From Candidatus Helarchaeota archaeon (GTDB lineage Archaea > Asgardarchaeota > Lokiarchaeia > Helarchaeales > RDOG01), in assembly GCA_019058315.1 (NCBI GenBank), contig JAHPZH010000003.1, positions 652,451-716,450 on the forward strand: a DNA stretch of 64,000 nt, given 5' to 3'. This document shows, one piece after another, positions 1-49,099 of the stretch. The notes below the pieces were generated by a model. It had not been told where the DNA came from and searched no databases. It saw nothing but the letters and a program-made list of their open reading frames with translations. Numbering within the stretch: the first letter of the stretch is position 1; every line of letters starts with the position of its first letter. The position numbers and the translations under genes were made by a program.

Positions 1-1
1 T

Positions 2-571
2 TCTGAATTCATTAAAATGAATTCTAGAGTTTATCGCGGTTTTAAAGATACTTGCGTTTTAATCTTGAGAGATTGGAATACATTTGAATTAGAAAATCAT
101 TTAATGAAAGCATTTACTGTTCTTCAAGATCGAATCGTTATTCGTAACATCGAATATGCTGAACGAGCTTTTCATGGAAATCGAATTAAAATTGATGTGC
201 TAGCTTCAAAAATATCTATGAAATCAAAAATATTTAAAGAAAGATTATTTGATATTCTAGGAACATCAGAAGAATTAACTGGAAAATATGATGTTAAAAC
301 TAATGAATATATCTTTCGACCTGATGAGGAACCTAAGACGGTTATACCCACTACCCCATCAATACCAGCTGTAACTAAAAAGGGTTTTTCTGATATTGTA
401 TCCCAAATAGCACCTGTTTTTACAATTATAGCTGCATTTGCTACAGTAACATGGTATATTTATAGTTCAACACAAAGTCTAGTTGTTGCTGTTCTAGTTC
501 CGAGTATTGGATTACCTATTGCCTTTATATTTATGTATTTATATTATCGTAAATTTAGGAAAAAGGATTAA
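2..571 (+). CDS. PCI/winged-helix-like domain protein with two C-terminal TM helices (probably 5'-truncated by window edge)
   Basis: Frame is open from base 2 (SEFIK) upstream of ATG 17; RIKIDVLASKISM...LTGKYD resembles a PCI winged helix; two hydrophobic helices and a basic tail follow. Confidence 0.5.
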   Translation, partial: SEFIKMNSRVYRGFKDTCVLILRDWNTFELENHLMKAFTVLQDRIVIRNIEYAERAFHGNRIKIDVLASKISMKSKIFKERLFDILGTSEELTGKYDVKTNEYIFRPDEEPKTVIPTTPSIPAVTKKGFSDIVSQIAPVFTIIAAFATVTWYIYSSTQSLVVAVLVPSIGLPIAFIFMYLYYRKFRKKD

Positions 572-576
572 TTTCT

Positions 577-774
577 TTGGAGTTCAATTGGAGACATCCG
601 AAATTTATTGCCGTATTATCAGGCGTTCCCACAGGTTTGGTTGTAGCGATTTATATTTTTATTACAGGAGATGAAAGTTTAACTATATGGTTTTTTGGCA
701 TTTCATTACTTATCGGGTTAATAATTGCTATAATACTTATTTATCATAAATCTACAAAAAATAAAAATGGATAG
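577..774 (+). CDS. small two-TM membrane protein
   Basis: 65 aa, two hydrophobic segments, tight spacing to both neighbours. Confidence 0.6.
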   Translation: MEFNWRHPKFIAVLSGVPTGLVVAIYIFITGDESLTIWFFGISLLIGLIIAIILIYHKSTKNKNG

Positions 775-782
775 GGATTCTA

Positions 783-1244
783 TTGCAAGGTAAATTTTTT
801 AATGACTTTAATATTGGAGATAAATTCATTACAGCTAGACGAACTTTAACTGAATATGATTTAGAAACATTCTGCAATCTTGTTTGGTTTAATTCGAGTA
901 TGTTCTTTGATGATATTTATGCAAGTGAAGAAATGCCCTATAAATCAAGAGTGTTTCCAGGACCTCTTATCATCCCTTTAGCAGTAGGTTTATTTTTAAA
1001 ATTAGGAATATATGAACGAACTATAATTGCATTGCTTGGAATTCAAAACATGAAGTTTAAAGCTCCTTTACGTATTGGCGATACGATGCAAGTCGATGTA
1101 GAAATTTTGGATAAGAAGGATTCAAAGACCTATCCAGATAGAGGAGTTTTAATCGTCCAATTTATTGTTAATAAAGCGCTACCAAAGTCTAAAAAAGAAT
1201 TTATTATGAGTTTTGAAATGGCTCATATGCTTAAAAAAAGATAA
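783..1244 (+). CDS. MaoC-like (hotdog fold) dehydratase
   Basis: FFNDFNIGDKFITARRTLTE...F N-terminus, FPGPL, and LGIQNMKFKAPLRIGDT hotdog signature. Confidence 0.85.
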   Translation: MQGKFFNDFNIGDKFITARRTLTEYDLETFCNLVWFNSSMFFDDIYASEEMPYKSRVFPGPLIIPLAVGLFLKLGIYERTIIALLGIQNMKFKAPLRIGDTMQVDVEILDKKDSKTYPDRGVLIVQFIVNKALPKSKKEFIMSFEMAHMLKKR

Positions 1245-1286
1245 AAACAATGATATTTATTTTAATTATATTCAAATCTTTAAGTT

Positions 1287-2117
1287 GTGATTCCGAGATT
1301 GCCAAAGAAAAAATCTGAAGATGACGAACTCATGGAGTTAGGGATTGGAGTAGGTCAGGATCAATTTTATTTAAATCTACCATATTTAGCACTTATTGAC
1401 ACTGATTTATGGAAAAGGAGAAATCCTTGGTCCTTTGATATTAAAACCCTTTTACCTGACTTTTTTGAACGAATGAAAGGAAATTTGAAATTTAAAATTT
1501 TAGGTAAAGCACTCCTCTCGGCAACGCAACTCCATCATGCAAAGATATTATGGTTAATTTATAGAGAAGAAAAGGAAAAAGAAAAGCAAGAAATAGAAAA
1601 GAAACAGAGAGAATCAAAGGAGCTTCCAAGCCTAAAAGTTCCAATCCGTCGTTTTTCAGAAGAAATAAGTAAAGAGGAGCTAATGGATCAGTTAATTAAG
1701 GTTCTACTCGATGATAAAAAAAGGACTGAACGAAGATTAAAGCGAAAGAAAAAAGATAAGGAAAAACAAATCCGAGAACAAAAACGCAAACGCCGTGTAC
1801 CTTTAATAGAGACCATGAAACCTAAGGACTTTGATTATGAAGTAGATGCTGATCGGATGAATGTTAAAGAACGAAATGAACAAGTATACAGTATGGCAAT
1901 TAAATTATTGAAAGAAGCTGCAGAAGCGGGAGAAGATGAAATTAGGTTTGAAAAACTTTTAAAAGCGCTTACAGAAATGGCATCAGATCCAAGAATATTA
2001 ATGGCACGGGTTCTTCTCTCAGTACTGTTTCTTATTTCAGACGGTCTTTTGTATGCTGAACAAGATATTGACACAAAAAGAATTTTTATAATGTTTCCAA
2101 TTGAAGCAGCAGCTTAA
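1287..2117 (+). CDS. scpA: segregation and condensation protein A (kleisin)
   Basis: NPWSFDIKTL...GKALLSATQLH..K N-domain; RR...ISKEELMDQL motif; C-terminal winged helix LLSVLFLISDG...EQ; adjacent to scpB and smc. Confidence 0.8.
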   Translation: MIPRLPKKKSEDDELMELGIGVGQDQFYLNLPYLALIDTDLWKRRNPWSFDIKTLLPDFFERMKGNLKFKILGKALLSATQLHHAKILWLIYREEKEKEKQEIEKKQRESKELPSLKVPIRRFSEEISKEELMDQLIKVLLDDKKRTERRLKRKKKDKEKQIREQKRKRRVPLIETMKPKDFDYEVDADRMNVKERNEQVYSMAIKLLKEAAEAGEDEIRFEKLLKALTEMASDPRILMARVLLSVLFLISDGLLYAEQDIDTKRIFIMFPIEAAA

Positions 2118-2145
2118 TTTTTTTAAAAGGATATGAGCTAATAAT

Positions 2146-2991
2146 ATGCCAAATTTAGAACATGTTAAACTCGTGGAAGCTAGTCTTTTTATTGCAGGAC
2201 GTTCAATTAAAACGGATAATTTACTCACGCTTATTGATGGGAAAGGGAAAGAGGAATTAAATAACATTATAGAACAAATCTCAAAAAGTTTAGAGAAACG
2301 TAATAGTTTTATCGAAATCGTAAAAATTGAAGACGAATATATGATGCGGGTTAAGCCTGCAATTAGAAAAGAGTTAGGGGATATTGAGACTAGAAAATCG
2401 CTTCCGGATGAATTTATAAAAATATTAGCAATAATTGCTATGAAACAGCCTATTAAATATGGAGACATAAGGAAAATTTATTCTGGAAAAAATCTAAAGG
2501 AAAATGTCTCGGAATTATTGAGGAAAGGATTTATTCAAGTTAGAAAAGAAAAAAGAACTAAATTCTTAACAACTACACCTCATTTTGCTAATGTTTTTAA
2601 TTTAGATCCAGCAAATATGAAAAGTGAAATTCTTAGAATTCTAACAAAACGGCTTTCACAGCGTGCAGTTAAAGCACCAGAGATGATTAAGAGGGACGAA
2701 AAAGAGGATAAGGAAGTTTTAACGGAAGTTGAAATAAAGGAAATTGAAGAAAAATATTATGATTTAATGGAAAAGTTAGAAAAAGAAAGGGAAGAGGAGA
2801 GAAAACGTTTAGAAGAAGAAGAAAAAAAGAAAGCTGAAGAAGCAGCACTTATAAAAAATCTAGTTTTAGATCCCATGGCAAGTATATTTAAGCCTAAAAA
2901 AGAAGATAAAGAAGAAGATATGCCTAAAAAGGAAGATAAAGAAGAAGAAAAGGAAGTCACAGAGAAAAATTCTGAAATAAAAGAGAGTTAA
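2146..2991 (+). CDS. scpB: segregation and condensation protein B (kite) with charged C-terminal extension
   Basis: VEASLFIAG; ILAIIAMKQPI; L..KGFI...TTPHFANVFNL tandem winged-helix motifs. Confidence 0.88.
   Translation: MPNLEHVKLVEASLFIAGRSIKTDNLLTLIDGKGKEELNNIIEQISKSLEKRNSFIEIVKIEDEYMMRVKPAIRKELGDIETRKSLPDEFIKILAIIAMKQPIKYGDIRKIYSGKNLKENVSELLRKGFIQVRKEKRTKFLTTTPHFANVFNLDPANMKSEILRILTKRLSQRAVKAPEMIKRDEKEDKEVLTEVEIKEIEEKYYDLMEKLEKEREEERKRLEEEEKKKAEEAALIKNLVLDPMASIFKPKKEDKEEDMPKKEDKEEEKEVTEKNSEIKES
2892..2948 (+). repeat. 30-bp-period direct repeat encoding PKKEDKEE twice
   Basis: gcctaaaaa(a/g)gaagataaagaagaaga occurs at 2892 and 2922. Confidence 0.8.
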
Positions 2992-3106
2992 TAAATTATA
3001 AAAGTAATCAAATTAAGTACAATAAGGATAATTTCATAATCAATCAATATATTTTTTCATCTCAAAGAGGGAGATTGAAATTAAAAATATTAAAAGAGAA
3101 GAGCTC

Positions 3107-3562
3107 GTGGATGAAAAAGCTCAAACCATTTTGTTACAAGCAACATACCCAGAAATAGTCTCGGTTCTTAAAAGAAGCATGGGGAAGGAAGCTTGTGTAG
3201 AAATTTTAAGAGATCTTGGAGCTATTGCGGCAAAAACAGTATCAGAATATTGGTTACCTAAGGGAAAAAACATTCAAGATATGGTTAAGGAAATTTTCAA
3301 AAAAATTCTAGATAATAAAGATATAAAAATCGTTAAAGAAAAAGGACAAAATTTTTTAGTTCAAGATTTTGAGTGTAGACTATGTTGGGAAGGAGTAGAA
3401 GAAGAGGATATTAACTATTGCGTATCAACATCCGCCTTTATAGAGGAAATATTAAATGTTATCAGGAAATCATATGTTTATCTACCCTCAGTCAAAGTTT
3501 CCACAATCAAATCTAAAGCAGCAGGAGCAGACCATTGTGAACATTTAATAGAATTCTTATGA
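3107..3562 (+). CDS. Bet3/TRAPP-like V4R-fold protein
   Basis: LLQATYPEIV...LRDLG, CRLC...YC...FIEEIL, KSKAAGADHCEH; pattern aligns by eye with the Bet3/V4R fold. Confidence 0.7.
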   Translation: MDEKAQTILLQATYPEIVSVLKRSMGKEACVEILRDLGAIAAKTVSEYWLPKGKNIQDMVKEIFKKILDNKDIKIVKEKGQNFLVQDFECRLCWEGVEEEDINYCVSTSAFIEEILNVIRKSYVYLPSVKVSTIKSKAAGADHCEHLIEFL

Positions 3563-3571
3563 GGGATAAAT

Positions 3572-4213
3572 TTGCCAGGTAGAAAAAAGTTAGGACTTTT
3601 AAGGAAAGCATTAGCAAAAGTAGGCAAACATGTAATGTGGACGTTTTCTAAAAAACTTAATAGGTTATTCCTTCATGGCTGCTGGAAAAGCGTTATATTA
3701 AAATTTTCGGAGTTAAATGAGAATGATGCTAATAAAGCTACTGAGATCTGGTTTGAGATAGGGAAGGCAGCAGGAGATAGCTTAATGTATGCTTGGTTAG
3801 ATAGAGGAAAAATGATTTTCTCTAAAAAGCTTGAGGATATGAAAGTTGTGGTTGAAACTGCTTGGTATAGCTTTTTAGGCGATCATACAGATGATGTAAG
3901 ATATTATGAAGCAGGTGATGGACATGAGGTTCCTAGAATCGTATGGCGATTCTGGAAATGTTGGATGTGTTCTGGAGTTTTTGAAGATGAAGACCTCAAA
4001 CATTTAGATTTAGAAAATCTTCAGGAATTTGGATATGGTGCGGCAGCAGCTGGGATTTTTGAAACAGCACTTCAAATGGTCCAAGATTATGTTGATAATC
4101 CATATCGAGTAGTAGTTCGAGAAACTAAATGTTTCTGCAGAGGGGATGATTATCAAGAATTTACAGCATATTTCTATCCAAAAGAAGAACCAGAATCATC
4201 CTTTGAGATATAA
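3572..4213 (+). CDS. V4R/Bet3-like domain protein
   Basis: WFEIGKAAG; CWMC; AAAGIFETAL; VRETKCFCRGDDYQEF V4R C-terminal motif. Confidence 0.75.
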   Translation: MPGRKKLGLLRKALAKVGKHVMWTFSKKLNRLFLHGCWKSVILKFSELNENDANKATEIWFEIGKAAGDSLMYAWLDRGKMIFSKKLEDMKVVVETAWYSFLGDHTDDVRYYEAGDGHEVPRIVWRFWKCWMCSGVFEDEDLKHLDLENLQEFGYGAAAAGIFETALQMVQDYVDNPYRVVVRETKCFCRGDDYQEFTAYFYPKEEPESSFEI

Positions 4214-4220
4214 TGGATAA

Positions 4221-5381
4221 TTAAAAGAAATTATCCAGCCAAGGTTTCATTTCCAAAATTAGAGGTTCTTTTGATATAAATTCGGGATTATCTGGACTGA
4301 CATAAGTTAAAAAGAACTTTTCTTTATCTTTGGTGACAATCCTCTCAAGAGTGCAATATTTTTTATTTTTTAATGCAAGGATTAATTTTAGAGCTTGGTC
4401 AGGAAATATATTTAATTCTTCGCCAAGAATAGTATTAAAAGCAAAATTTTTTGCAAGCTCCTTTTCGTCATCTCCGTTTTCGGCTATGCAAATGCCGGTT
4501 TCGTTATAAATTGAAATATATTTTGCATTTACTTTAGACTCAAAATTCATTAGAATATTTTTTATTATAGTATTAACTGGAGAAAGTTCTCTAAGACTTT
4601 CACTAAAAGCAGAGAAGATGCTGTTAAAATTAAAAATACTGGTTACATGGGTAAAAAATCGAATCTCTCCAAAGATTTTTTGGATTTCTTTGCTAATTGC
4701 TGTTTTTTCTTTTTTAATATCTGGTGGTTTCATTTTGTCTGATTTATGTAATAGAACAACTGAAACGGGAGCTTCCTCTAAATATTTGAAAATTTCAACA
4801 ATATTTTTTAAATATTCCAATGCTGCATTTGTTCTTTTAGTATCGGATATATCAATAACAAAGACAAAGAGACTTGTGTAGCCAAAATGTTCTTTTGGTT
4901 CAGATAGATATTTTTTTCTATAGATATCTTGTCCTCCGAGATCCCATATACTTAAATTATAGCCGAATAGTTCAATATTTTCATATTCTACACCTTTTGT
5001 TGGCTTTAGTGATTTGGTTTCTTTTCCATCTTTTGCCTCTTGTGGATTAAGGAGAGTCTGAATGATTGAAGTCTTACCAGCAGCGTCAATACCAGCAATA
5101 ACTATTTTCTTTTCGGTAGTTTTCGCCCCTGTTGCAACTTCATTAATTATACGAGCGGCAGTAGTTAATTTCTCTATTTTTAAGGATTCTACAGACTTTA
5201 ATAGTTTATCAGGACTTTCAATTTTAATTAAATCAGCAATTTTGGCAATATTGTTTTGATTTAGCACTTTAGCGGTATCTTCATCACAGCCTTTCAAAGA
5301 AGTTATATCTAATTCAAGAACTTTTTGTAAATCAGCTGGAACTTTTTTAACATTTAATAGGGCAGCAATTTTAGAGGACAT
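4221..5381 (-). CDS. Rag/Gtr-like small GTPase with N-terminal HhH-like module and C-terminal roadblock domain
   Basis: G1 GIDAAGKTS, G2 PTKG, G3 WDLGGQ, G4 HKSD, G5 TSIF; post-G5 SIFSAFSESLRELSP...NFESKVNAKYISIY resembles the RagA/Gtr1 linker and C-terminal roadblock. Confidence 0.82.
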   Translation of the reverse strand: MSSKIAALLNVKKVPADLQKVLELDITSLKGCDEDTAKVLNQNNIAKIADLIKIESPDKLLKSVESLKIEKLTTAARIINEVATGAKTTEKKIVIAGIDAAGKTSIIQTLLNPQEAKDGKETKSLKPTKGVEYENIELFGYNLSIWDLGGQDIYRKKYLSEPKEHFGYTSLFVFVIDISDTKRTNAALEYLKNIVEIFKYLEEAPVSVVLLHKSDKMKPPDIKKEKTAISKEIQKIFGEIRFFTHVTSIFNFNSIFSAFSESLRELSPVNTIIKNILMNFESKVNAKYISIYNETGICIAENGDDEKELAKNFAFNTILGEELNIFPDQALKLILALKNKKYCTLERIVTKDKEKFFLTYVSPDNPEFISKEPLILEMKPWLDNFF

Positions 5382-5470
5382 AGCAATCCCTTATTTTTTA
5401 AAATCAATGATGTAATATATTTATACAAGATTATTTTTATATTTTTAAATTATTTTTTACAGTGCTTTAA

Positions 5471-6502
5471 ATGGCAAATGAGAAAGAACAAGACGAAGAT
5501 GCAGTAGAATCTCAAGACATTGAGGATGAAGATGAAGAAATAGAAAAAATGTTAGAAGAATTAGAGGAAGAAGAATTAGAAGAAGAAGGATTAGAGAAAG
5601 AAGAAATAATGGAGACCCAGCCAGAGATTAAAACGGATTTGGAAAAGGATATAGATATAAAAGACATTGAAATTACCTCAGAGATGGAACTCCCTATTCA
5701 TGAACAAGAATCACCACCTAAGACACAAAATTCGACTGAAGAAACATCAATAATGGCTCAGGTTTCAAAAGCTAAAGATTTAGAACAATTAATTGAAACA
5801 GAGGAACAAAAAAGCATTGAAGGTGAGGAATCCTTAATGTCTGATCAAGCACTTGATGAATTAGAAGCCATAGAAGATAAATCAGCTAAAGATCAATTTA
5901 AAGACCTTCATGCATATATTGAAGCCATTTTATTTGAGGTTGGAAAACCTCTTAAAGAATCAGAACTTGTTGACTTATTATTTGAAAAATATAAAGCTGA
6001 TAGAAATAGGATTAGATGGGGGTTAAGAATAGTAATGAGAGCTTTAGAAGCCCAGAATAGTTCAATCCAATTAATAAACCCCACTAAGGATTTTTGGTCT
6101 TTTCAACTTCACAGAGAGCTATCAGATGACTTTTTAGACAAAATAGAGAAATTTATCCCTGAAGAGGAATTTATTTCTAAAAGAGAAACCGTATTTTTAA
6201 CCGAAATAGCTTATAGACAACCAGTTACTACAACAGATATATTAAAGATTTTAGGTGCTGATGGATATGATTATATACGCTCTCTAGAAGAAAAAGATCT
6301 TATATTTATGACAAAAGAAGGGCAATCTAATATCTTAAGAACCACCGAAAAATTTGCACAAATTTTTGGTTTTGATACACAATTAAGAAGTTTAAAACTT
6401 CAACTAGTTTGGAGGCTTAAAAAATTAGCTAGATCCGAAGCAGCAAGAGATAAAGCTACTTTAGCTCTATTAAAGAAAGATAGAGAAAAGTACGAATCTT
6501 AA
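5471..6502 (+). CDS. scpB: second, divergent ScpB paralogue with long acidic N-terminal extension
   Basis: IEAILFEVGKPL; LTEIAYRQPVT; LEEKDLI...RTTEKFAQIFG; about 140 aa Glu/Asp-rich N-terminus. Confidence 0.85.
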   Translation: MANEKEQDEDAVESQDIEDEDEEIEKMLEELEEEELEEEGLEKEEIMETQPEIKTDLEKDIDIKDIEITSEMELPIHEQESPPKTQNSTEETSIMAQVSKAKDLEQLIETEEQKSIEGEESLMSDQALDELEAIEDKSAKDQFKDLHAYIEAILFEVGKPLKESELVDLLFEKYKADRNRIRWGLRIVMRALEAQNSSIQLINPTKDFWSFQLHRELSDDFLDKIEKFIPEEEFISKRETVFLTEIAYRQPVTTTDILKILGADGYDYIRSLEEKDLIFMTKEGQSNILRTTEKFAQIFGFDTQLRSLKLQLVWRLKKLARSEAARDKATLALLKKDREKYES

Positions 6503-6607
6503 TTTAATAAAAATAGAGAAATGACAAAATAATATCATAGTAATTAAATATTTAAATTATTATTGGAATTAGATTAATTAAAATGGTTACCTTTTTAAAA
6601 TTGGTGA

Positions 6608-9600
6608 ATGGAAAAGATGACATTTATCAAACGCATCGATATGACAGGATTTAAGTCATACGGAAGAGGAACTATATCTTTAGGATTTGGTCCTGGATTT
6701 ACGGGAATAATTGGACCAAATGGTTCAGGAAAAAGTAATATAGTAGATGCAATTTCCTATACATTAGGGGAATTGAGCTCGAAAAGTATGCGAGCGAAGG
6801 ATTTAAGGGATCTCATATATTCAGGAACTGGAGGTGATAATCCTGCCGATTTCGCTTCCGTTAATATTGTGTTTGATAATTCCGATAAAAAGATTCCGGT
6901 TCCTTTTGATGAAGTTATGGTACAAAGAGATATAAAAAGAAAGGGAGGAGGTTCCGTTTATAGGTTTAATGGGAAACGATCTACTAGAACTGAGATCATG
7001 GATAAATTAAAGATTGCCAATATTGATGTAAAAGAGGGGTTTAATTTAGTGTTGCAGGGGAGAATTGCAGAACTTGCTGCTATGAATCCCGATGAACGTA
7101 GGGAATTAATTGAGGATTTAGCGGGGACAAATGAATTTGATGAAAAAAAAATTGCGAGTATAAGTGAATTAGAAAAGGCTGAAATAAAACTAAGTGAATT
7201 AGAATTATTAATTAATGAAACCGAGACTAATGTAAAGAGATTGGATAAAGAAAAAAAAGATGTGGAAGAATGGGAGCTAGTTGTAGAACAAATATTTGAT
7301 AATAAAACCCAACTTTTATCTTTTCGACATGGAAATTTAGTTGAAGAATTAAAGGGATTCCAAACCAAAAGTGACGAGTTACTTAAAGAAATAAAGGAAG
7401 TAGAAGAGGAGAAAAATAAAAAAATTAAGATCTTAGACGAAGTAAATAAAAGTATTGAGGATGTCAAAAATAAAATAAATAAAAAACAGACCGACCTTGA
7501 AAATGTTCAAGCAGATATTTCTAATTTAAAATCAACCATTACTGGGCTCAAAAGGGATGTAACACATAGAGAAAAACGAATTAAAGAAATGGAGCAAGAA
7601 CAAGAAGATACTAAATCAAGAATTCAAAATATTAAAAAGAATCAAGACAAATTAGGAAGTGAAGTTACAGATATTGAAAGTAAGTTGGGTGTACTTGGAA
7701 AAAAGAGGGATGAAGAAAGAGCAGAACAAGAAAGATTAAATAAATTGATTCAAAAAAGTCAAACGCAATTTGAAACTCTTCAAACCCGTGCTACGGAAAT
7801 TCAAAAACAAATAGAAATGAAAACTAAAAAATTAAATAATTTAGAAATTCAAAAATCAATGAAATTATCTGGAGCAGAAATAAAACAAAATACATATGAT
7901 TCCAGAAAGCGTGAATTGGAATCACGTAAAAGAACATATAATCAGAATTTAGAATCCCTTAAAGCTTTAGAATTAGAAATAGTTCAATCGAAAGAACTAC
8001 TTCAAGTAGCATCACATAGAGTTGACTCATCAGATTCTAAAAGATCAACATATGAAGAAAGATTAGAACAGTTATATGATTTAAAATCCAAATTGGAAAA
8101 AAACACCTCATCTCTTGAAGCAAAAATTGACACTATTCAGAGTTTTCAAGGAGGAGATACGAATCCTGTAATTAAAAAAATTATGGGAAAAAAGGAAAAA
8201 AATGAAATTGTTGGTATTATCGGCAGATTTGGCGATTTAATAAATCTTGATGAACTTGATCCTAATGATAAAGCAGCACTTATTCCTTATTTGAATACTA
8301 TTATTGTTGATAGCACATTAACTGCTGCTGAAGCAATTCAAATTCTTAAAGATGAGCAAATAGGATATGGTTCTTTTATCCCTCTAGAAGAATTAGGAGA
8401 AATAATAATTGGACAAAATCTTCCATTTAAATTCTTGGAGGATCTTGACAGAAAGATGAAGGCAACGGCATTTATTTTTAATGATACTGTTGTTACTGAA
8501 AATCTTCATTCAGCAATTGATCTATTTATTAAAAATATTGAAGAAAAGAAATATGGAACTCAAATTCTGACTTTACAAGGTGAGAAAATCTCTAGAGAGG
8601 GGATTATTTCTGGTGGTGCTAGTTTAGAATTTGCTGAAACTCAAATATTAGATTTAAAAAAGAAATTAGAAGAACAGCAAGGAGAAGTTGGCAAGATTAG
8701 TGAAGAACAGATTATAACCAAACAAAAACTTGCTAAATTAAATGACTTATTAGCTGAAGTTAAAAGAAAACAAGAAAATGTAAAACAGAATATAAAGAAT
8801 AAACAAGAGAAAATGGATAGTATAACTAAGCTGATTGAGGAAGATAAATTTCATATCAATAGAATTGAGCAAGAATTAGAATCTTTAAAATTGAATATTG
8901 AAGCGATTAATACCTTATCAGCGAATATTGAACGTGAAAAGTCGGAAACTGAAACATCTGTTGCAGTACTTAAAGAAGATAAGAAAGTTATTGACGATGA
9001 GATTGAAAAAACTGAGATGACTAAGCTTTTAGATTCTGTTCGTAAGGTAGAAAAAGAATTATCGAAATTAGAAATTGATTATAGTAAAAATGAAGCTATA
9101 AAGAGTGAAAAATTACAACAGATAAATGATATCCTCGATAAAAATATAAAAGAAAAAGAGTCTCAAGTTCAAAATCTAATCAAAGAAATTGAGCAAGCAA
9201 GAAAAGATATTGAAAAATTTAATAGTGAAAAAAATCAAGCTGAAAAAGATTTAACTGCTAAAACAAAGGGTGAAGAAGATTTTAAAAAGGAAATTCAAGA
9301 ACTTCAAGATTCTATTAGTACAAAGTTAAACGAGATAGAAGCGAAGCGAAATGAAAATACTGCTCTTAATAGAAGAATAGAAAGATTACGTGAACAAGTA
9401 GGTGAAATCAAAGTCAATCAAGAGAGAGTAAAAACAGAATTGAGTAATGTCCAAAAACAGATTGAAGAAGAAGAGATAGAATTGATTCAACTTAAGAAAG
9501 AGGTTGATGAAAAAAAGCTTGAAAGCAAAATTCGAGAACTTTTAGACAGAAAACGACAGCTTGAACCAGTTAATGCCCTTGCTATAAAGCAGTTCCATGA

Positions 9601-10177
9601 AGCAAATCAAAGATACCAAGATTTAAAATCCCGACACGAAGAACTTCAAGAAGAAAGAAAAATTATAGTTGATTTTATCAATAAAATAGAATATGAAAAA
9701 GAAAATGTATTCATGAAAATTTTTAACGAAATTAATAAAGAATTCGGTAAAATCTTCAAAATGATCGCTGGAGGTAATGCTTGGATGGAGTTGGAAAATG
9801 AGGAGAACCCATTTGAAGGTGGAATCACTATTAATGCCGAACCGCATGGTAAAAAAGTAAAATCTGTAAGAGCTATGTCAGGAGGCGAAAAATCATTAAC
9901 TGCATTATCTCTAATTTTTGCAATGCAAAAAGTCGAGCCTTCACCATTCTATATTTTAGATGAGATCGATGCTGCATTAGATGTCATGAATGTGAGACGT
10001 GTAGCAAAAGTAATTGAGAAGATGAGTAAAGAATCTCAATGTATCCTCATTACTCACAGAGATATTGCCATGAGATACGCCAATTTACTTTATGGTGTTA
10101 CAAATATAAAAGGGATCTCAAAAGTGGTTTCTGTTGAATTGTCTGATGAAAGCACACTTCGTGAATTAAGCTCTTAA
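6608..10177 (+). CDS. smc: chromosome segregation protein SMC
   Basis: GFKSY, Walker A GPNGSGKSN, Q-loop LVLQG, coiled coils, hinge GEKISREGIISGG, signature MSGGEKS, Walker B YILDEIDAALD. Confidence 0.97.
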   Translation: MEKMTFIKRIDMTGFKSYGRGTISLGFGPGFTGIIGPNGSGKSNIVDAISYTLGELSSKSMRAKDLRDLIYSGTGGDNPADFASVNIVFDNSDKKIPVPFDEVMVQRDIKRKGGGSVYRFNGKRSTRTEIMDKLKIANIDVKEGFNLVLQGRIAELAAMNPDERRELIEDLAGTNEFDEKKIASISELEKAEIKLSELELLINETETNVKRLDKEKKDVEEWELVVEQIFDNKTQLLSFRHGNLVEELKGFQTKSDELLKEIKEVEEEKNKKIKILDEVNKSIEDVKNKINKKQTDLENVQADISNLKSTITGLKRDVTHREKRIKEMEQEQEDTKSRIQNIKKNQDKLGSEVTDIESKLGVLGKKRDEERAEQERLNKLIQKSQTQFETLQTRATEIQKQIEMKTKKLNNLEIQKSMKLSGAEIKQNTYDSRKRELESRKRTYNQNLESLKALELEIVQSKELLQVASHRVDSSDSKRSTYEERLEQLYDLKSKLEKNTSSLEAKIDTIQSFQGGDTNPVIKKIMGKKEKNEIVGIIGRFGDLINLDELDPNDKAALIPYLNTIIVDSTLTAAEAIQILKDEQIGYGSFIPLEELGEIIIGQNLPFKFLEDLDRKMKATAFIFNDTVVTENLHSAIDLFIKNIEEKKYGTQILTLQGEKISREGIISGGASLEFAETQILDLKKKLEEQQGEVGKISEEQIITKQKLAKLNDLLAEVKRKQENVKQNIKNKQEKMDSITKLIEEDKFHINRIEQELESLKLNIEAINTLSANIEREKSETETSVAVLKEDKKVIDDEIEKTEMTKLLDSVRKVEKELSKLEIDYSKNEAIKSEKLQQINDILDKNIKEKESQVQNLIKEIEQARKDIEKFNSEKNQAEKDLTAKTKGEEDFKKEIQELQDSISTKLNEIEAKRNENTALNRRIERLREQVGEIKVNQERVKTELSNVQKQIEEEEIELIQLKKEVDEKKLESKIRELLDRKRQLEPVNALAIKQFHEANQRYQDLKSRHEELQEERKIIVDFINKIEYEKENVFMKIFNEINKEFGKIFKMIAGGNAWMELENEENPFEGGITINAEPHGKKVKSVRAMSGGEKSLTALSLIFAMQKVEPSPFYILDEIDAALDVMNVRRVAKVIEKMSKESQCILITHRDIAMRYANLLYGVTNIKGISKVVSVELSDESTLRELSS

Positions 10178-10215
10178 CAGTCATAAAATATTTTTAATAT
10201 TCTATTTTTCAAATT

Positions 10216-11271
10216 TTAAATTTCATTTTCTCCAATTTTTTTAACTACTTGTGCCGGAACACCATATGCAATACAGTATGGAGGTATATCATCAACAACC
10301 ACTGAGCCTGCGCCTATAATCGACCCTTCTCCTATAGTAACGCCAGGTAAGATTGTCGAATACGCCCCAACTCGCGCATTTTTTTCTAGTTTTATTGGAC
10401 CTATACAAATTGTCAAGGGATCTTGATTCATAAAATTATGTGTTAATAACTGACAACCTATACCCACACCAGAACCTTCCTCAAATTCTATTAAATCAGG
10501 AAATAATGGGTCTATACGAGTCCATTGGCTAATACATACATTTTTTGCTATTTTTAATTTCGCTATCCTACGATAAATTCGATTTTTAGTTCTAGGCCAT
10601 GAAGTAAAATTCCTAATTATTTGTGTAACAAAACTTAGAATCCCACTCTTTAAATAGAGAGCTATTGAAACATCAGGATTTTTTCTGAGTTTATGAAAAG
10701 CCTCTTGTATTTTTAATATTGCAACTGCATCATAAACATATGAAATTGTAGAATCATTTTTTTGAAGGTGAATGTATGTTAATTTTCCCTTTTCTTCAAC
10801 CGTATATGTTAATTTATGATAATCCTTTCTTTGTCTCCATATATCTTCAAAAAAAGTTGAAATATCAAACCATTTCTCCAAGATTAATGATAGTATTGGC
10901 AAAAATGCAAAAAGCATAGTTGCAAGTAAAATTAATTTAATTTCTATTAAAAGCAATTCGTAGAATATAACAGTTAAAATAGTATATAATACCAAACCAA
11001 TTAAACTCGAAATTATCATTAATGCTCCAAATAGAGTTATCAGCATTCCTTTAACACGATTACGTTTAATATAAGAATATCCCCCACCGTAAATGAATCC
11101 TCCAATACAAAAATCGGCTACTATCCCAACATATACCCAAATTATCCACTCATTGAATATTTTATAGAGAATGGGTTCTAATACTTGAAAAATTTCCGCA
11201 TGAAAAATAAATATGATAAAGAGTCCTGTCAGAATTATGATTAAAATGCCAATTTTTTTTAGAATTCCCAT
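10216..11271 (-). CDS. membrane-anchored hexapeptide-repeat (LbH) acyltransferase
   Basis: N-terminal TM helices; VGAYSTILPGVTIGEGSIIGAGSVVVDDIPP...GVPA. Confidence 0.85.
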   Translation of the reverse strand: MGILKKIGILIIILTGLFIIFIFHAEIFQVLEPILYKIFNEWIIWVYVGIVADFCIGGFIYGGGYSYIKRNRVKGMLITLFGALMIISSLIGLVLYTILTVIFYELLLIEIKLILLATMLFAFLPILSLILEKWFDISTFFEDIWRQRKDYHKLTYTVEEKGKLTYIHLQKNDSTISYVYDAVAILKIQEAFHKLRKNPDVSIALYLKSGILSFVTQIIRNFTSWPRTKNRIYRRIAKLKIAKNVCISQWTRIDPLFPDLIEFEEGSGVGIGCQLLTHNFMNQDPLTICIGPIKLEKNARVGAYSTILPGVTIGEGSIIGAGSVVVDDIPPYCIAYGVPAQVVKKIGENEI

Positions 11272-11421
11272 CTCTAATTCACACTATTTTTAATTTTATT
11301 TTATAAAGATAAGAATCACGACTTCAAATTTTATTATATTAAAAAGGATAAATTAAATAAGCTATTCTTAGTTTTCATTATAAAGCTTTGTCTAGTATTA
11401 AAACATGGAAATGATCTATAA

Positions 11422-12012
11422 ATGAGTCAAGTTGAGCAAAAAAAACGACTATCCCCGACCCAATATAGATTAATAGGATATATTCCGATTATTATTTGTT
11501 TTCCCTTGACCTTTATAATATTTCAGCCTTCTATTATTGAAATTATTGCAGCATCTATAGCTGGATTATTTACTGCTGTTTATGATTGGAGCATTGAAGC
11601 ATATGCCTACAAAAAAGACCTTTGGTTTTGTTATGGGGGTTGTCAGAAAATCGAGATTGGAAGTAAAACAATTGATTTTAAGCATGTTCCAATAGATATG
11701 ATAATCAGTTTTTGGTTTTTTGGTTTTATGTTTAGTATATTATCAACTTTTCCAGATAGAAATAGAGTAATGTATAAAATAATTACAGATCCTGCTTTAA
11801 CAAACCCAGCCCTTGATCCGGTTTGGATTATTGCACTTTGTTTTATTTTGGCAACATTTGGAGCAATTTTTGACTATAGACATATTGGTTGTGGGGTTTG
11901 GAAACCTGGGGAAAACTGGAGTTTCCCAAAATGTGCGTATATTGCTTGGTTATCCTTAATTGCTTTTACTACTATTTTATTTTATGGATTATTAGGTATT
12001 TTCATGTTATAA
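11422..12012 (+). CDS. hypothetical integral membrane protein
   Basis: 196-aa ORF with about 5 hydrophobic segments. Confidence 0.7.
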   Translation: MSQVEQKKRLSPTQYRLIGYIPIIICFPLTFIIFQPSIIEIIAASIAGLFTAVYDWSIEAYAYKKDLWFCYGGCQKIEIGSKTIDFKHVPIDMIISFWFFGFMFSILSTFPDRNRVMYKIITDPALTNPALDPVWIIALCFILATFGAIFDYRHIGCGVWKPGENWSFPKCAYIAWLSLIAFTTILFYGLLGIFML

Positions 12013-45409: not shown

Positions 45410-46546
45410 CTATTTTTGTTCTTTTATCTTTAAAATTGATTTAAGTTCCTCGTGTAGTGATTCTTTCAAAGCATCTTTACTCTTTATTTGGTCAAATTTT
45501 TCAGTACTTTTTAATTCAAGTGTTGTTTCTGGAGAAATTGATTGTATTGATTTTTTAAGAAATTCAATCCATTCAATTGTATTTTGATTGGCTTTTTCGA
45601 GCATTAAAAATCGGGATTCAATTGAAGAGGTCAAGTTAATTAATAGATTTAAAACTTGTTCTATTGAAGATCCCAATTCTTTTCCTTTTAATCCTGCTGA
45701 ACCTGTAATAATTAGATCACGAATACCTTTTATTACAGTTTTACTATCTCCCAAGCTGTTATAAATACTGTAAGGCGTTATTTCATATTCAAAATCTTTA
45801 AATTGAAATATTTCCTTGATTTCTTTTGATAGAAATTCAAATCTTTCTTTAATTTGTTCATCATCTTTGATATCGGGATCCATTTTATTTATTATAATTA
45901 GAAATCTAGGATTTTCTTTCAATAGCTCAACAATATTAGTAATCTCTTTCAGATAATCCAATGAATTCTCAAATTTCGAGGGATCTTGAATATCTATAAC
46001 AAACATTAAAAATACAATATTTAAAAAGTATCTATCTGCATTTTGTATATATTCTTTCCTATAAATCTCTTGTCCACCCATATCCACCATTACATATTTT
46101 AAACCTTTCTTATCATCGAATATTTTTTGATTTGGACCTAATGTTGGTGGTAATTGATCAAATATATCCAATTTTAATTTATCCTGGATAATTCGGAATA
46201 TTGCGGTCTTTCCAGCGTTATCCAATCCTACAATTGAAATTTTTTTAGATCCTAAAAACTCACCAATTTTACCTTCAGAAATCATCTTTGAAATAAACAT
46301 CCATACGTTTACATCATACGGATCAACACCTAACACTTTTAATGTTAGGAACTTGGAGTCATCTATTTCCATTCTTACGAAATCTTCAATTTTTCTTGCT
46401 TTTAATACATTATACATGGTAAAAGCTGCCTTACTACTGACTCCTTTAAAATAAGTCAAGTCTAATTTTAAAATATCTTTTAAATCCTTAATTTTTTCTG
46501 GGATATCTATAATATCTTTAAGTCTTTCACGAATTGATTCATTCAA
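45410..46546 (-). CDS. HhH-like/Arf-like GTPase/coiled-coil protein (array copy 4)
   Basis: LDLTYFKGVSSKAA; GLDNAGKT, PTLG, DMGGQ, NKMD; C-terminal coiled coil and LHEELKSILK. Confidence 0.88.
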   Translation of the reverse strand: MNESIRERLKDIIDIPEKIKDLKDILKLDLTYFKGVSSKAAFTMYNVLKARKIEDFVRMEIDDSKFLTLKVLGVDPYDVNVWMFISKMISEGKIGEFLGSKKISIVGLDNAGKTAIFRIIQDKLKLDIFDQLPPTLGPNQKIFDDKKGLKYVMVDMGGQEIYRKEYIQNADRYFLNIVFLMFVIDIQDPSKFENSLDYLKEITNIVELLKENPRFLIIINKMDPDIKDDEQIKERFEFLSKEIKEIFQFKDFEYEITPYSIYNSLGDSKTVIKGIRDLIITGSAGLKGKELGSSIEQVLNLLINLTSSIESRFLMLEKANQNTIEWIEFLKKSIQSISPETTLELKSTEKFDQIKSKDALKESLHEELKSILKIKEQK

Positions 46547-46577
46547 AAATACCTTCCTCCTTTAATTATTTTTTTGA

Positions 46578-47720
46578 TTATCCTATTTTTCTCATTTTTA
46601 ATAATTCCTTAAGTTCTGCTCGAAGAGATTGTTTTAAAGATTGAGTGTCTTGTAATTTTTTGAATCCTTTAGGGGCTTCTAATTTTGTAGGAAGTTCAGC
46701 TGGGATTTTAGGTTGAGGTGTTTTTGTATACGTACTCCATTCTCTAAAGTTTTGAATTGATTCTTCAATTTTTGAAAATCGTTCTTCCATCGTAGAACCA
46801 AAGGTGAGTACAATATTCATCATTCTTTCTAAGGATTCTATAACAAAATCTTTTAATTCTTGAAAACTTTCTGAATCAGTACTTAAAAAATCACGAATAT
46901 CTCTAACTACAGATTTATTATCCCCCAATGCATTAAAAATACTATAAGTTGTTATTTCATATTGGAAAGTTTTATCTTGTAGTATTTCATCTACCTTTTT
47001 TATTAAGTAGAGAACAGAACTTTGAATATCTTCTTGTTCCTTAATATCCGGATCTACTTTATGTATTATAACTAAAAATTCAGGATTTTCATTTAAAATT
47101 GACATAATTTTTATAATTTCTTCCAGATAGTGTAAAGCTTCCTCAAATTTATCTGGGTCTTGGACGTCAATAACAAAAATTAATAGACCAACTTTAAGAA
47201 AATACTTTTCAGCATGTTGGATATAGTCTTTTCTGTATGCTTGTTGACCACCCATATCTAAGATCATGTATTCAAAGCCAAGTTTTTCAATTACTTCTCT
47301 ATTAACACCTATTGTTGGTGCTAAACTACCAAATAAATCGATATTGACTTTATCTTGCAACACACGCAAAATAGCAGTTTTTCCAGCATTATCAAGACCC
47401 ACAAGAGATATTTTTCTCGGCCCAATATATTCTTCTATTTTACCTTTATTGAGGACTCTTGAAATAAAAACCCATACATTTAGGTCATAAGGATTAATTC
47501 CAAGAAATTTCAAATTCATGAATTCTTCTTCATTGATTTTTCTTTTTGCAAGGTCTTTTATTGTTTTAACATTTAGAACTTTTCGTAATACAGCAGCATC
47601 CTTAATACTGATTCCTTTGATGTGTGATAAATTAAGGTTTAAAATACGTTTAAGGGTTCTGACATTTTTTGGAATCTCAAGAAGATGTTCAAGCTTTTTG
47701 ACTATTGAATAACCCTTCAA
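46578..47720 (-). CDS. HhH-like/Arf-like GTPase/coiled-coil protein (array copy 3)
   Basis: LNLSHIKGISIKDA; GLDNAGKT, PTIG, DMGGQ, HKVD; Pro-rich linker; LRAELKELLKMRKI. Confidence 0.88.
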   Translation of the reverse strand: MKGYSIVKKLEHLLEIPKNVRTLKRILNLNLSHIKGISIKDAAVLRKVLNVKTIKDLAKRKINEEEFMNLKFLGINPYDLNVWVFISRVLNKGKIEEYIGPRKISLVGLDNAGKTAILRVLQDKVNIDLFGSLAPTIGVNREVIEKLGFEYMILDMGGQQAYRKDYIQHAEKYFLKVGLLIFVIDVQDPDKFEEALHYLEEIIKIMSILNENPEFLVIIHKVDPDIKEQEDIQSSVLYLIKKVDEILQDKTFQYEITTYSIFNALGDNKSVVRDIRDFLSTDSESFQELKDFVIESLERMMNIVLTFGSTMEERFSKIEESIQNFREWSTYTKTPQPKIPAELPTKLEAPKGFKKLQDTQSLKQSLRAELKELLKMRKIG

Positions 47721-47846
47721 TTTATCACCAATATATTCATCTAATCTTTACATTTATATAATTCTATATAAAAATTTATTAGAATTTTAAAGACTATTTA
47801 TCATTAGGAACAAACAACTTCTCTTAGTATAATTTAAAAACCTATT

Positions 47847-49043
47847 TTATATAAGATCATCATCTCGGGTCTTTAATATTTCATTTTTTTTCGATTTTAA
47901 TACAGATTTTAGCTCCTTGCGGAGAGCTTCGTTTAAAGTCTTAAAAATTTTTACTTTATCGGTTTCTGGGGAAGGTTTTGTTTCTACGGTGGGTTTGGGG
48001 GTAAATTCGTGAGTTGTACTGAAATGTTCCATCCAATTTCTAAAGTCTTGCATACCCATTTCAAGATTTGATAACCTTTGTTCTACAGTTGAACTAAGAT
48101 TTATCACTATATTTAAAATTCGTTCCATTGAACTTTGTAAAATTACTTCTTCCTTGTGTTTATGCTCAACATCAGGAGATATTACCCCACTAGTTATAAA
48201 TTCACGAATTTCTTTTACTACTGCTTTATTATCTCCAATAAAATTAAATATACTAAAGGTCGTTATGTCAAAAACAAAATCTTTATCTTTAAATATTTCA
48301 ATAACTTTATCCCCTAAGTAATTAATCGAATCTTGAATTTCCTTAAAATCAGAAATGTCAGGATCCACTTTATGAATTACAATTAGAAATTCTGGTTCTT
48401 CTTTTAATAATTCTACAGTTTTAATGACATCTTGTAAATATTTTAATGATTCATCAAATCTTTTCGGATCTTGCACATCTATAACATACATTAAAAATTC
48501 AACTTTAAGAAAATAGCTTTCAGCGTTTTGAATATATTGTTTCCTATAGGCTTCTTGTCCTCCCATATCGAGTATTACATGTTGCATGCCATATCTTTCA
48601 ATTATCTCTCGATTTGCCCCCACCGTTGGTGCTAACTTGCTAAATATATTTACATTGAGTTTATTTTGTATAGCGTTCAATATTGCAGTTTTTCCTGCGT
48701 TATCAAGACCAACAATCAAGGTTTTTGAAGGACCTAAATACTTACTAATTTTTGCTTCAGATATCATTTTAGAGAAAAAAGACCAAATATTTAAATCGAA
48801 TTCGCTTATGCCTAATGATTTTAACATTAAATATTCTGAGTCATTTACCTCTCTTCTTGCCATCTCTTCGATAGTCATAACATGTAATACATTTTTTAAT
48901 GTTGTTGCTATTTTTACATCGATTCCTTTAACATGAATTAAATCTAGTTTTGAAATTTCATTTAGAGTTCCTACTCTTGCTGGAATATCAATAAAATTAC
49001 TTAGTTTTTCCCTCATTGATTTATCTAAAGGTATTAATTCCAA
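47847..49043 (-). CDS. HhH-like/Arf-like GTPase/coiled-coil protein (array copy 2)
   Basis: LDLIHVKGIDVKIA; GLDNAGKT, PTVG, DMGGQ, HKVD; LRKELKSVLK. Confidence 0.88.
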   Translation of the reverse strand: MELIPLDKSMREKLSNFIDIPARVGTLNEISKLDLIHVKGIDVKIATTLKNVLHVMTIEEMARREVNDSEYLMLKSLGISEFDLNIWSFFSKMISEAKISKYLGPSKTLIVGLDNAGKTAILNAIQNKLNVNIFSKLAPTVGANREIIERYGMQHVILDMGGQEAYRKQYIQNAESYFLKVEFLMYVIDVQDPKRFDESLKYLQDVIKTVELLKEEPEFLIVIHKVDPDISDFKEIQDSINYLGDKVIEIFKDKDFVFDITTFSIFNFIGDNKAVVKEIREFITSGVISPDVEHKHKEEVILQSSMERILNIVINLSSTVEQRLSNLEMGMQDFRNWMEHFSTTHEFTPKPTVETKPSPETDKVKIFKTLNEALRKELKSVLKSKKNEILKTRDDDLI

Positions 49044-49099
49044 AAAAATTTACCTCCAATATTATATAATAAGAATTTAAAAAAGGATTTTCTCTTTTT

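Follow-up and report, generated by a model that had tools for sequence, protein, structure and literature searches.

A Rag-like GTPase with a helix-hairpin-helix domain beside scpB2-smc in Helarchaeota-type archaea, and a lineage-specific pair of TRAPPC3-like genes at its 3' end

Gene content of the locus and domains of its GTPase

The window analysed here, a 64,000-nucleotide stretch of archaeal DNA (contig C11:652451-716450), carries within its first 12 kb a gene for a small GTPase and a tandem pair of genes for proteins of the Bet3/TRAPPC3 fold (Bet3a and Bet3b), all set within the gene cluster of a condensin-type SMC-ScpAB complex. Gene order over 1-12 kb is MaoC-like, scpA, scpB1, Bet3a, Bet3b, GTPase (minus strand), scpB2, smc and hexapeptide transferase (minus strand). 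The association of the GTPase with the condensin genes is conserved at order level, surviving local rearrangement, with one co-loss. The window belongs to a genome of 5.79 Mb in 12 contigs (G000; ~30% G+C, 94% completeness, 6.6% contamination), and its proteins find their closest named relatives in entries annotated as Candidatus Helarchaeota; other G and L labels denote related genomes and loci. All genomes are metagenome-assembled, related genomes are not independent of one another, and those of the same class in the GTDB sample are of Lokiarchaeia type. An original prediction for this stretch had described two V4R/Bet3-like genes 9 nt apart that converge, across a gap of 7 nt, on a GTPase with Rag-like HKxD/TSI motifs, a helix-hairpin-helix (HhH)-like N-module and a roadblock tail, the whole lying between scpB1 and scpB2-smc. 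This observation is confirmed in every part, with both gaps exact (Table 1).

The GTPase gene encodes three domains, and stands in the window locus as a single gene rather than as an A/C-type pair. Its G domain scores well above threshold for Pfam Gtr1_RagA (101.4 bits, cut-off 22) and also matches Arf (71 bits). In an alignment of 26 orthologues the G1 motif GxDxAGKT/S, T128, DxxGQ, HKSD and TS[IV] vary little or not at all, and all three regions of the protein are conserved. Searched against the PDB, the GTPase profile (A3) found its best matches in 8yl2 (2.4e-41) and 8zla (3.6e-33), both entries titled 'GTP-binding protein', and the alignment to 8yl2 spans the G domain together with the C-terminal domain. 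Among named proteins, RagA (8e-20) and Gtr1 (3e-18) gave the best matches over the longest span, their alignments running ~45 residues into the Rag C-terminal domain, while Arl3 (4e-18) aligned over the G domain only. The orthogroup is sharply bounded, with 27 cluster representatives sharing 44-88% identity over their full length and the next match at E = 4e-34; a search for close relatives of the GTPase among genome contigs confirmed no locus.

For the N-terminal domain itself, no Pfam family reached threshold and no usable ESM-feature match was obtained. Its profile (A4) nevertheless matched the HhH thumb of the Y-family polymerase of the same genome (E = 1.1e-5), at a spot where Pfam places IMS_HHH and HHH_5, and retrieved 114 proteins at E <= 1e-3 from 1.84e9 representatives. 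One class of these consists of GTPases of ~380-420 amino acids that match once, at the N-terminus; the other consists of proteins in which 2-11 matches follow one another in tandem. Within a sample of 30 of the multi-repeat proteins, Pfam recognised HHH_5 in 16 (best 5.7e-30), IMS_HHH_1 in 10, RAD51D_N in eight and RNA_pol_A_CTD in five. By its profile matches to the polymerase thumb and to HHH_5-bearing repeat proteins, the N-domain is HhH-type. Its pattern presumably also resembles the N-terminal domain motif of RadA/Rad51, which we take as a lead only. Eight GTPases in the genome carry the domain, including those of a four-gene array at window 45410-50230; alignments of the GTPase (P0001) to the array proteins start at residue 4-7, in keeping with the predicted sharing of the module. 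A 312-amino-acid open reading frame elsewhere in the genome (C3:457844-458779) has two weak tandem matches to the N-domain profile and no Pfam family, and is possibly an HhH-repeat protein.

Support for the roadblock tail is transitive. An iterated profile search with the C-terminal domain (inclusion 1e-3) first gathered the C-domains of other HhH-GTPases and of Rag-like GTPases, reached a stand-alone Pfam Robl_LC7 protein in round 3 (E = 4.7e-9) and included six such proteins by round 5, and the RagA/Gtr1 alignments extend into the same region. A direct profile search of the domain against the PDB returned nothing, hhalign against the Robl_LC7 proteins of the same genome gave a probability of only 8%, though in register, and an ESM feature search produced leads only (0.82-0.86), to eukaryotic Gtr1_RagA fragments. 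We accept the domain as a probable roadblock, a call that carries some risk of profile drift because it rests on the iterated search and the direct tests were weak.

The condensin-type gene set around the GTPase is complete, with SMC, kleisin and kite genes all present. Both ScpB proteins and the SMC are recognised by Pfam; ScpA as a single sequence has no Pfam match and is identified by its family profile, and its gene keeps synteny with scpB1 throughout the related loci. The smc orthologues of related loci share 46-78% identity. ScpB2 bears an acidic N-terminal extension of ~145 amino acids and ScpB1 an acidic C-terminal tail, both kept across related loci; the presence of two ScpB paralogues with such conserved extensions in one SMC locus suggests a heterodimeric kite.

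Conservation of the GTPase beside scpB2-smc

Twelve informative loci around GTPase orthologues were read, along with partial ones. In 11 of the 12 (the window, L029, L030, L019 of genome G001, L020 of G005, L022 of G003, L032, L034, L035, L066 and L067) the GTPase gene lies head-to-head with scpB2 across a spacer of 77-196 nt, so that the neighbourhood, checked for synteny across Asgard genomes, is not unique to this genome and recurs in related loci. The adjacency withstands 44-56% sequence divergence. It is also kept where a flavodoxin-ferredoxin gene has been inserted between scpB2 and smc, as in several loci (e.g. L020, L034), where scpA-scpB1 has been relocated behind smc (L032) and where smc itself is no longer adjacent (L066). 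The outer flanks vary by group, holding a prenyltransferase/MaoC, a flavodoxin, or a second GTPase with a phosphodiesterase. In one family (f2, represented by two genomes, G002 and G004, of 93% completeness apiece), neither a GTPase orthologue nor a ScpB match nor an SMC of this type was found, a co-absence that counts as one event.

We propose that this HhH-Rag-roadblock GTPase, encoded head-to-head with scpB2-smc inside the scpA-scpB1/scpB2-smc cluster across Helarchaeota-type genomes, would serve as a GTP/GDP-gated switch tuning the loading or activity of an SMC-ScpA-ScpB1/B2 complex. The protein would dimerise through its roadblock domain, like Rag GTPases, would touch DNA or a DNA-bound partner through its HhH domain, and may contact SMC or ScpB; its gene would share a short divergent control region with scpB2-smc. 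Synteny and domain content form the whole basis of this proposal, and we put the chance of a functional link between GTPase and condensin at about even.

Several observations weigh against it. Everything functional in the proposal rests on gene order, and that order has exceptions: in L033, the twelfth locus, the GTPase gene lies near scpB1-scpA and apart from scpB2-smc; G006 (88% complete and outside the twelve) has no GTPase gene next to its scpB2-smc and yielded no orthologue; and within ~9 kb on either side of the orthologous SMC gene of Lokiarchaeales-type genomes there is neither a ScpB nor a GTPase gene. All loci belong to a single order, and part of the pattern could therefore be due to inherited synteny. 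The same facts sustain a rival reading in which the protein would be a Rag/Arf-like switch of the common Asgard sort, acting at membranes or in signalling, one of ~100 whose genes are scattered through the genome, and in which its adjacency to scpB2 is an inherited order without function; HhH-type domains, moreover, mediate protein contacts too. Against so neutral an account, the adjacency has outlasted the divergence, the scpA-scpB1 move, the flavodoxin insertion and the complete replacement of the outer flanking genes. Family f2 lacks all three of the GTPase, ScpB and this SMC type, and many DNA-binding domains are among the members of the HhH family. We consider the ordinary-switch account unlikely, if still to be reckoned with.

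The Bet3 pair and other occupants of the slot at the GTPase 3' end

The position at the 3' end of the GTPase gene is occupied differently in three groups of loci. In group A, a genus-level clade in which Bet3b identity is 65-91%, it holds the Bet3 pair (the window, L029, L030, L057, L058 and L059); the contig of L057 ends before the GTPase side, and in the other five loci the GTPase lies beside the pair, with two extra small genes between them in L058. In group B (L020, L022, L034, L035, L066 and L067, with a variant in L033) the occupant is a folliculin-like longin protein of ~400 amino acids with a long helical tail, whose gene converges on the GTPase gene or overlaps it by a few nt. Its N-terminus matches Pfam Folliculin in four of five members (best 3.6e-5, 24.1 bits, cut-off 23.3) and PDB 8yqg, 'Longin domain' (3.3e-4). 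In the consensus a GP motif, DIGP, falls between predicted strands one and two, and an ARG motif, ARGGARD, follows later; its ARG position may be the counterpart of FLCN's finger. This protein and the GTPase are a candidate cognate pair of GTPase-activating protein (GAP) and GTPase. In group C (L019 and L032) a 320-amino-acid protein shows, by eye, a CxC...CxH SWIM-like motif for which Pfam gives no support.

Since two of these three occupant families are eukaryotic regulators of small GTPases, and the gene of the third follows the GTPase gene immediately on its own strand, the pattern argues for a slot that is GTPase-related, and in our proposal it would take up lineage-specific partners or regulators. 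The Bet3 pair is missing from the SMC locus of G001, G003 and G005 and from groups B and C, occurs in the locus only among the closest relatives (60-91% identity), and is a recent, lineage-specific arrival. Its presence within the locus of G001 and G005 was ruled out, the gaps there holding other genes. As to a mobile-element origin of the insertion, no integrase or repeat evidence turned up, and no search was aimed at these. The original prediction had left two alternatives, a GTPase switch physically linked to chromosome organisation through a DNA-binding HhH or an insertion that split the smc operon, and a part of each survives: the GTPase, with its HhH domain, is a stable, order-wide resident of the locus (11 of 12 loci), a tie seen in synteny and domains only, and the Bet3 pair is the lineage-specific insertion.

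In group B loci a second HhH-GTPase is encoded just upstream of scpA, and the clusters are consequently bracketed by two Rag-like GTPases. The nearest relatives of this second protein in G000 are the four array genes (27-33% identity).

Neither Bet3a nor Bet3b as a single sequence passes any Pfam threshold (best V4R match E = 3), and their relatives give V4R/TRAPP matches in Pfam at sub-threshold level only; profiles and structure models identify the fold. A profile of the Bet3a family (A2, 19 sequences) matched the Thorarchaeota TRAPPC3 structures 7yh2 (1.4e-15) and 7yh3 (5.4e-15), followed by eukaryotic TRAPPC3, and that of the Bet3b family (A1, 21 sequences) matched TRAPPC3 6aq3 (2.4e-5) and Thorarchaeota TRAPPC3 (6e-4). 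AlphaFold2 models (pLDDT 90.7 for Bet3a, 86.6 for Bet3b) both have the two-layer alpha/beta fold of Bet3/TRAPPC3, four helices on a four-stranded sheet. In Foldseek searches TRAPPC3/Bet3 chains ranked first for both models (E ~2e-7 to 7e-7, TM 0.7-0.8), led for Bet3a by Thorarchaeota TRAPPC3 and eukaryotic Bet3 and for Bet3b by eukaryotic Bet3/TRAPPC3 (E = 7e-7); the matches include TRAPP chains bound to Ypt1 and Ypt32, and the V4R sensor domains of MopR/PoxR rank well below. C90, C93, C105 and C144 of Bet3a are invariant and align with the Zn-binding cysteines of Thor-TRAPPC3 (7yh2), whose cysteines have been shown to bind Zn by Tran et al. (2024, PMC10933270). Bet3b conserves only C130, C133 and C187, that is, a CxxC and one cysteine at a shifted position, leaving a partial Cys4 site. 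The two families are distant paralogues (hhalign 96%, E = 3.5e-9, ~20% identity). Given the strict tandem a/b order in seven pairs and in relatives, Bet3a and Bet3b most likely form a heterodimer, which would be joined through the two N-terminal helices, with a Cys4 Zn site in Bet3a.

Those seven a-then-b tandem pairs all lie in G000, and several occur in each genome of the same order. Around the six pairs outside the window (L013-L018) the neighbours are DUF362, ferredoxin-domain, AFOR, TPP enzyme, ADH, CCG/Hdr-like, AICARFT and LysE genes and PadR/TrmB regulators, with no GTPase within 6 kb; the strictness of the a-then-b pairing suggests that they are obligate heterodimers, with roles outside GTPase signalling. 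Because the genome has ~100 small GTPase genes, adjacency of the Bet3 pair to a GTPase is not by itself beyond chance: over 14 flanking positions, the probability of one such adjacency is roughly 25%. In Lokiarchaeales-type genomes Bet3a precedes a Bet3b that carries a fused C-terminal extension of ~290 amino acids (L009:1477-2952 (+); likewise L008 and L010-L012), an extension without a match in Pfam or ESM-feature searches.

In our proposal the Bet3 proteins would act on the GTPase as a regulator or as a ligand-sensing input, and would not make up a full TRAPP complex. For this genus we hold such a role to be doubtful, and an unrelated insertion about equally probable. The slot gene of groups A and B is convergent to the GTPase gene and not co-transcribed with it; most members of the Bet3 pair family have redox or metabolic genes as neighbours; and in L031 a pair 60% identical is found away from any SMC locus, flanked by gyrB and two RFC subunit genes. 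These points, with small-molecule or ligand binding being favoured for Asgard TRAPPC3 by Tran et al. (PMC10933270), tell against the role as input. The metabolic neighbours, the L031 pair and the proposed ligand binding also fit a rival reading, in which Bet3a and Bet3b are an autonomous Zn- and ligand-binding V4R heterodimer, acting as a small-molecule or redox sensor or carrier, that was inserted here by chance and has no functional tie to scpB1 or the GTPase. That the pair is confined within these loci to group A, and that its adjacency lies within reach of chance, suits this rival as well. It accounts less readily for a pair that stays beside the GTPase in all five readable loci of the genus, or for a slot that in the sister family holds a folliculin-type longin, of a family tied to Rag GTPases, and in group C a same-strand gene directly downstream of the GTPase. 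On balance we judge the autonomous pair a serious possibility, though one to which we would not commit.

Convergent on the L031 pair, in the region L031:3094-5038, is a gene for 261 amino acids whose N-terminus looks longin-like and whose C-terminus looks roadblock-like by eye; Pfam and PDB profile searches give no longin or roadblock support for it. Homologues occur in G000, for example at C5:1225242-1225994 and at C11:439178-439921, the latter between two Robl_LC7 genes.

The original prediction had named the locus a proto-TRAPP module. Taken at its strongest, this would make Bet3a/Bet3b the guanine-nucleotide exchange factor (GEF) of the adjacent GTPase, docking on its roadblock domain in place of the Bet5/Trs23 longins. 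The top structural matches are indeed Bet3 chains of the TRAPP core, some of them from complexes bound to Ypt1 or Ypt32, and the pairing of a with b has parallels in the heterodimers Bet3-Trs31 and Bet3-Trs33. In addition, roadblock and longin are related platform folds, and a longin-TRAPPC3 fusion is reported from Heimdall, both according to Tran et al. (PMC10933270). No longin-type Bet5, Trs23 or Trs20 gene was found in window 1-12000, however, where the only nearby platform domain is the roadblock tail of the GTPase itself. The exchange site of eukaryotic TRAPP needs the longin subunits Bet5/Trs23, which bears equally on any exchange role for the pair in our own proposal, and eukaryotic TRAPP acts on Rabs, not on Rags. 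A weak search found no longer form of Bet3b fused to a GTPase or longin. A complex prediction of Bet3a, Bet3b and the GTPase, with the GTPase as scored partner, returned an ipSAE of 0.00 in two runs, and is neither support nor counter-evidence. Since the six other pairs adjoin redox or metabolic genes and have no GTPase within 6 kb, proto-TRAPP in the form proposed is not shown, and we regard it as quite improbable.

Table 1. Genes and domains of the window locus, with occupants of the slot, second GTPases and further Bet3 pairs in related loci and elsewhere in G000 (coordinates without a label refer to the window).
Feature	Position	Strand	Evidence or details
GTPase, 386 amino acids, three domains	4221-5381	-	HhH + Rag/Gtr1-like G + roadblock
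GTPase residues 1-88, HhH-type N-terminal domain	5118..5381	-	Profile matches
GTPase residues 89-261, Rag/Gtr1-like G domain	4599..5117	-	Pfam Gtr1_RagA 6.9e-29, Arf 1.2e-19
GTPase residues 262-386, roadblock-type C-terminal domain	4224..4598	-	Iterated profile search; PDB 8yl2 alignment
AT-rich divergent intergenic region GTPase/scpB2, 89 nt, candidate shared promoter	5382..5470	.	Sequence read; putative promoter
scpB2 (second kite paralogue), 343 amino acids, acidic N-terminal extension	5471..6502	+	Pfam SMC_ScpB 5.1e-20, residues 149-306
smc, 1189 amino acids	6608..10177	+	Pfam SMC_N 1.6e-54 + SMC_hinge
scpA (kleisin), 276 amino acids	1287..2117	+	Profile of 9 orthologues vs PDB 6ivh 'Segregation and condensation protein A', E 9.6e-8
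scpB1 (kite), 281 amino acids, acidic C-terminal extension	2146..2991	+	Pfam SMC_ScpB 4e-25; NCBIfam TIGR00281 1.7e-23
Bet3a, TRAPPC3/Bet3-V4R fold, 151 amino acids, GTG start	3107..3562	+	Profile vs PDB, AlphaFold2, Foldseek
Bet3b, longer TRAPPC3/Bet3-like paralogue, 213 amino acids, TTG start, extra N-terminal helix	3572..4213	+	Profile vs PDB, AlphaFold2, Foldseek, hhalign
Folliculin-like longin gene	L020:1513-2712; L034:8168-9376; L035:8158-9348; L066:8168-9376; L067:8135-9322	+; -; -; -; -	
Second HhH-GTPase, 404-413 amino acids	L034:10757-11998; L035:10830-12053; L066:10887-12119; L067:10832-12049; L033:13909-15123	-; -; -; -; -	
SWIM-like gene	L019:6708-7670; L032:8185-9150	-; +	Same strand as GTPase, 23-35 nt after it; 39% identity to each other
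Six further Bet3a/Bet3b pairs (L013-L018)	C2:55.3-56.5 kb; C3:1175.3-1176.6 kb; C1:424.4-425.6 kb; C3:1078.4-1079.6 kb; C3:896.9-898.1 kb; C5:163.0-164.0 kb		

A candidate condensin-coupled switch and its relation to known systems

The explanation that we favour, tentatively and with slightly less than even confidence, is that the GTPase is a switch associated with DNA and coupled to condensin, and that the slot holds regulators which differ between lineages. Asgard archaea encode dozens to ~100 small GTPases as well as proteins of roadblock, longin and TRAPPC3-like type, and a matching of regulators to GTPases has been lacking. This locus gives concrete pairs, since one GTPase orthogroup lies beside a TRAPPC3-like pair in one genus and beside a folliculin-type longin in another family; it also points, through a fused HhH domain, to an unexpected cellular context for a Rag-like GTPase, that of SMC-ScpAB chromosome organisation. 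A functional link to condensin would alter the reading of where Rag and TRAPP regulators came from; failing such a link, the locus would still be the best available biochemical entry to an Asgard GTPase-regulator pair.

We found nothing relevant in the literature on Asgard ScpB with a GTPase or on an Asgard helix-hairpin-helix with a small GTPase, and no paper on a GTPase-condensin link. Asgard SMC operons that include kite paralogues are described in a preprint on the evolution of SMC complexes, whose sole mention of a GTPase concerns an unrelated eukaryotic cilium protein (10.1101/2024.01.07.573240), and a 2025 study poses the partner GTPase of Asgard FLCN-type longins as an open question (PMC12290439). 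According to Tran et al. (PMC10933270), Asgard TRAPPC3-like proteins, Rag-like GTPases and GTPase-roadblock fusions were already known, and the GTPase genes of Prometheoarchaeum MK-D1 do not as a rule share operons with genes for roadblock, longin or TRAPPC3 proteins. The GTPase-roadblock and longin-GTPase-roadblock proteins of MK-D1 resemble the GTPase described here in fusing a Rag-like G domain to a roadblock; they differ in that the available text mentions no HhH N-domain, and in that here the neighbourhood is conserved (Tran et al. 2024).

Bet3a shares its fold with Thorarchaeota TRAPPC3 (PDB 7YH2/7YH3), to the point that the four Zn-binding cysteines align. That protein, in contrast, was crystallised as a homodimer from a single gene, whereas here tandem divergent paralogues sit in a condensin locus, and Bet3b has an added N-terminal helix and three cysteines only. 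With the eukaryotic TRAPP core the locus has in common the Bet3-family fold, two different Bet3-family subunits encoded together and a small GTPase next door; it differs in having no longin subunits, in a neighbouring GTPase that is Rag-like and not a Rab, and in window proteins that remain below Pfam TRAPP thresholds. The Rag/Gtr systems, with FLCN-FNIP and GATOR1 as longin GAPs, offer the Gtr1_RagA signature, HKxD, TS[IV] and the C-terminal roadblock as shared features, and in sister loci a folliculin-type longin abuts the GTPase. Here, however, an N-terminal HhH is added, one gene replaces the A/C pair, no Ragulator/TOR context is seen and the neighbourhood is one of chromosomal maintenance.

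A functional analogy may be drawn, finally, with ParB, which like the proposed switch is nucleotide-gated, dimerising, equipped with a DNA-binding-type domain and associated with SMC-ScpAB, features that on the GTPase side are conjectural. ParB is a CTP-gated DNA clamp that loads bacterial SMC-ScpAB. A stronger version of our proposal would make the GTPase its archaeal counterpart, a dedicated nucleotide-gated, DNA-associated regulator or loader of condensin whose slot would encode its GAP (the folliculin-type longin of one family) and its GEF or sensor (the TRAPPC3-like a/b dimer of this genus), a version that we consider improbable. Were it true, it would provide a prokaryotic precedent for chromatin-coupled small GTPases, and would imply that regulator families of eukaryotic membrane traffic and nutrient sensing first served chromosome organisation. 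The two proteins differ in fold, which is unrelated, and in nucleotide, and the link of ParB to SMC has been shown experimentally, whereas that of the GTPase is read from gene order.

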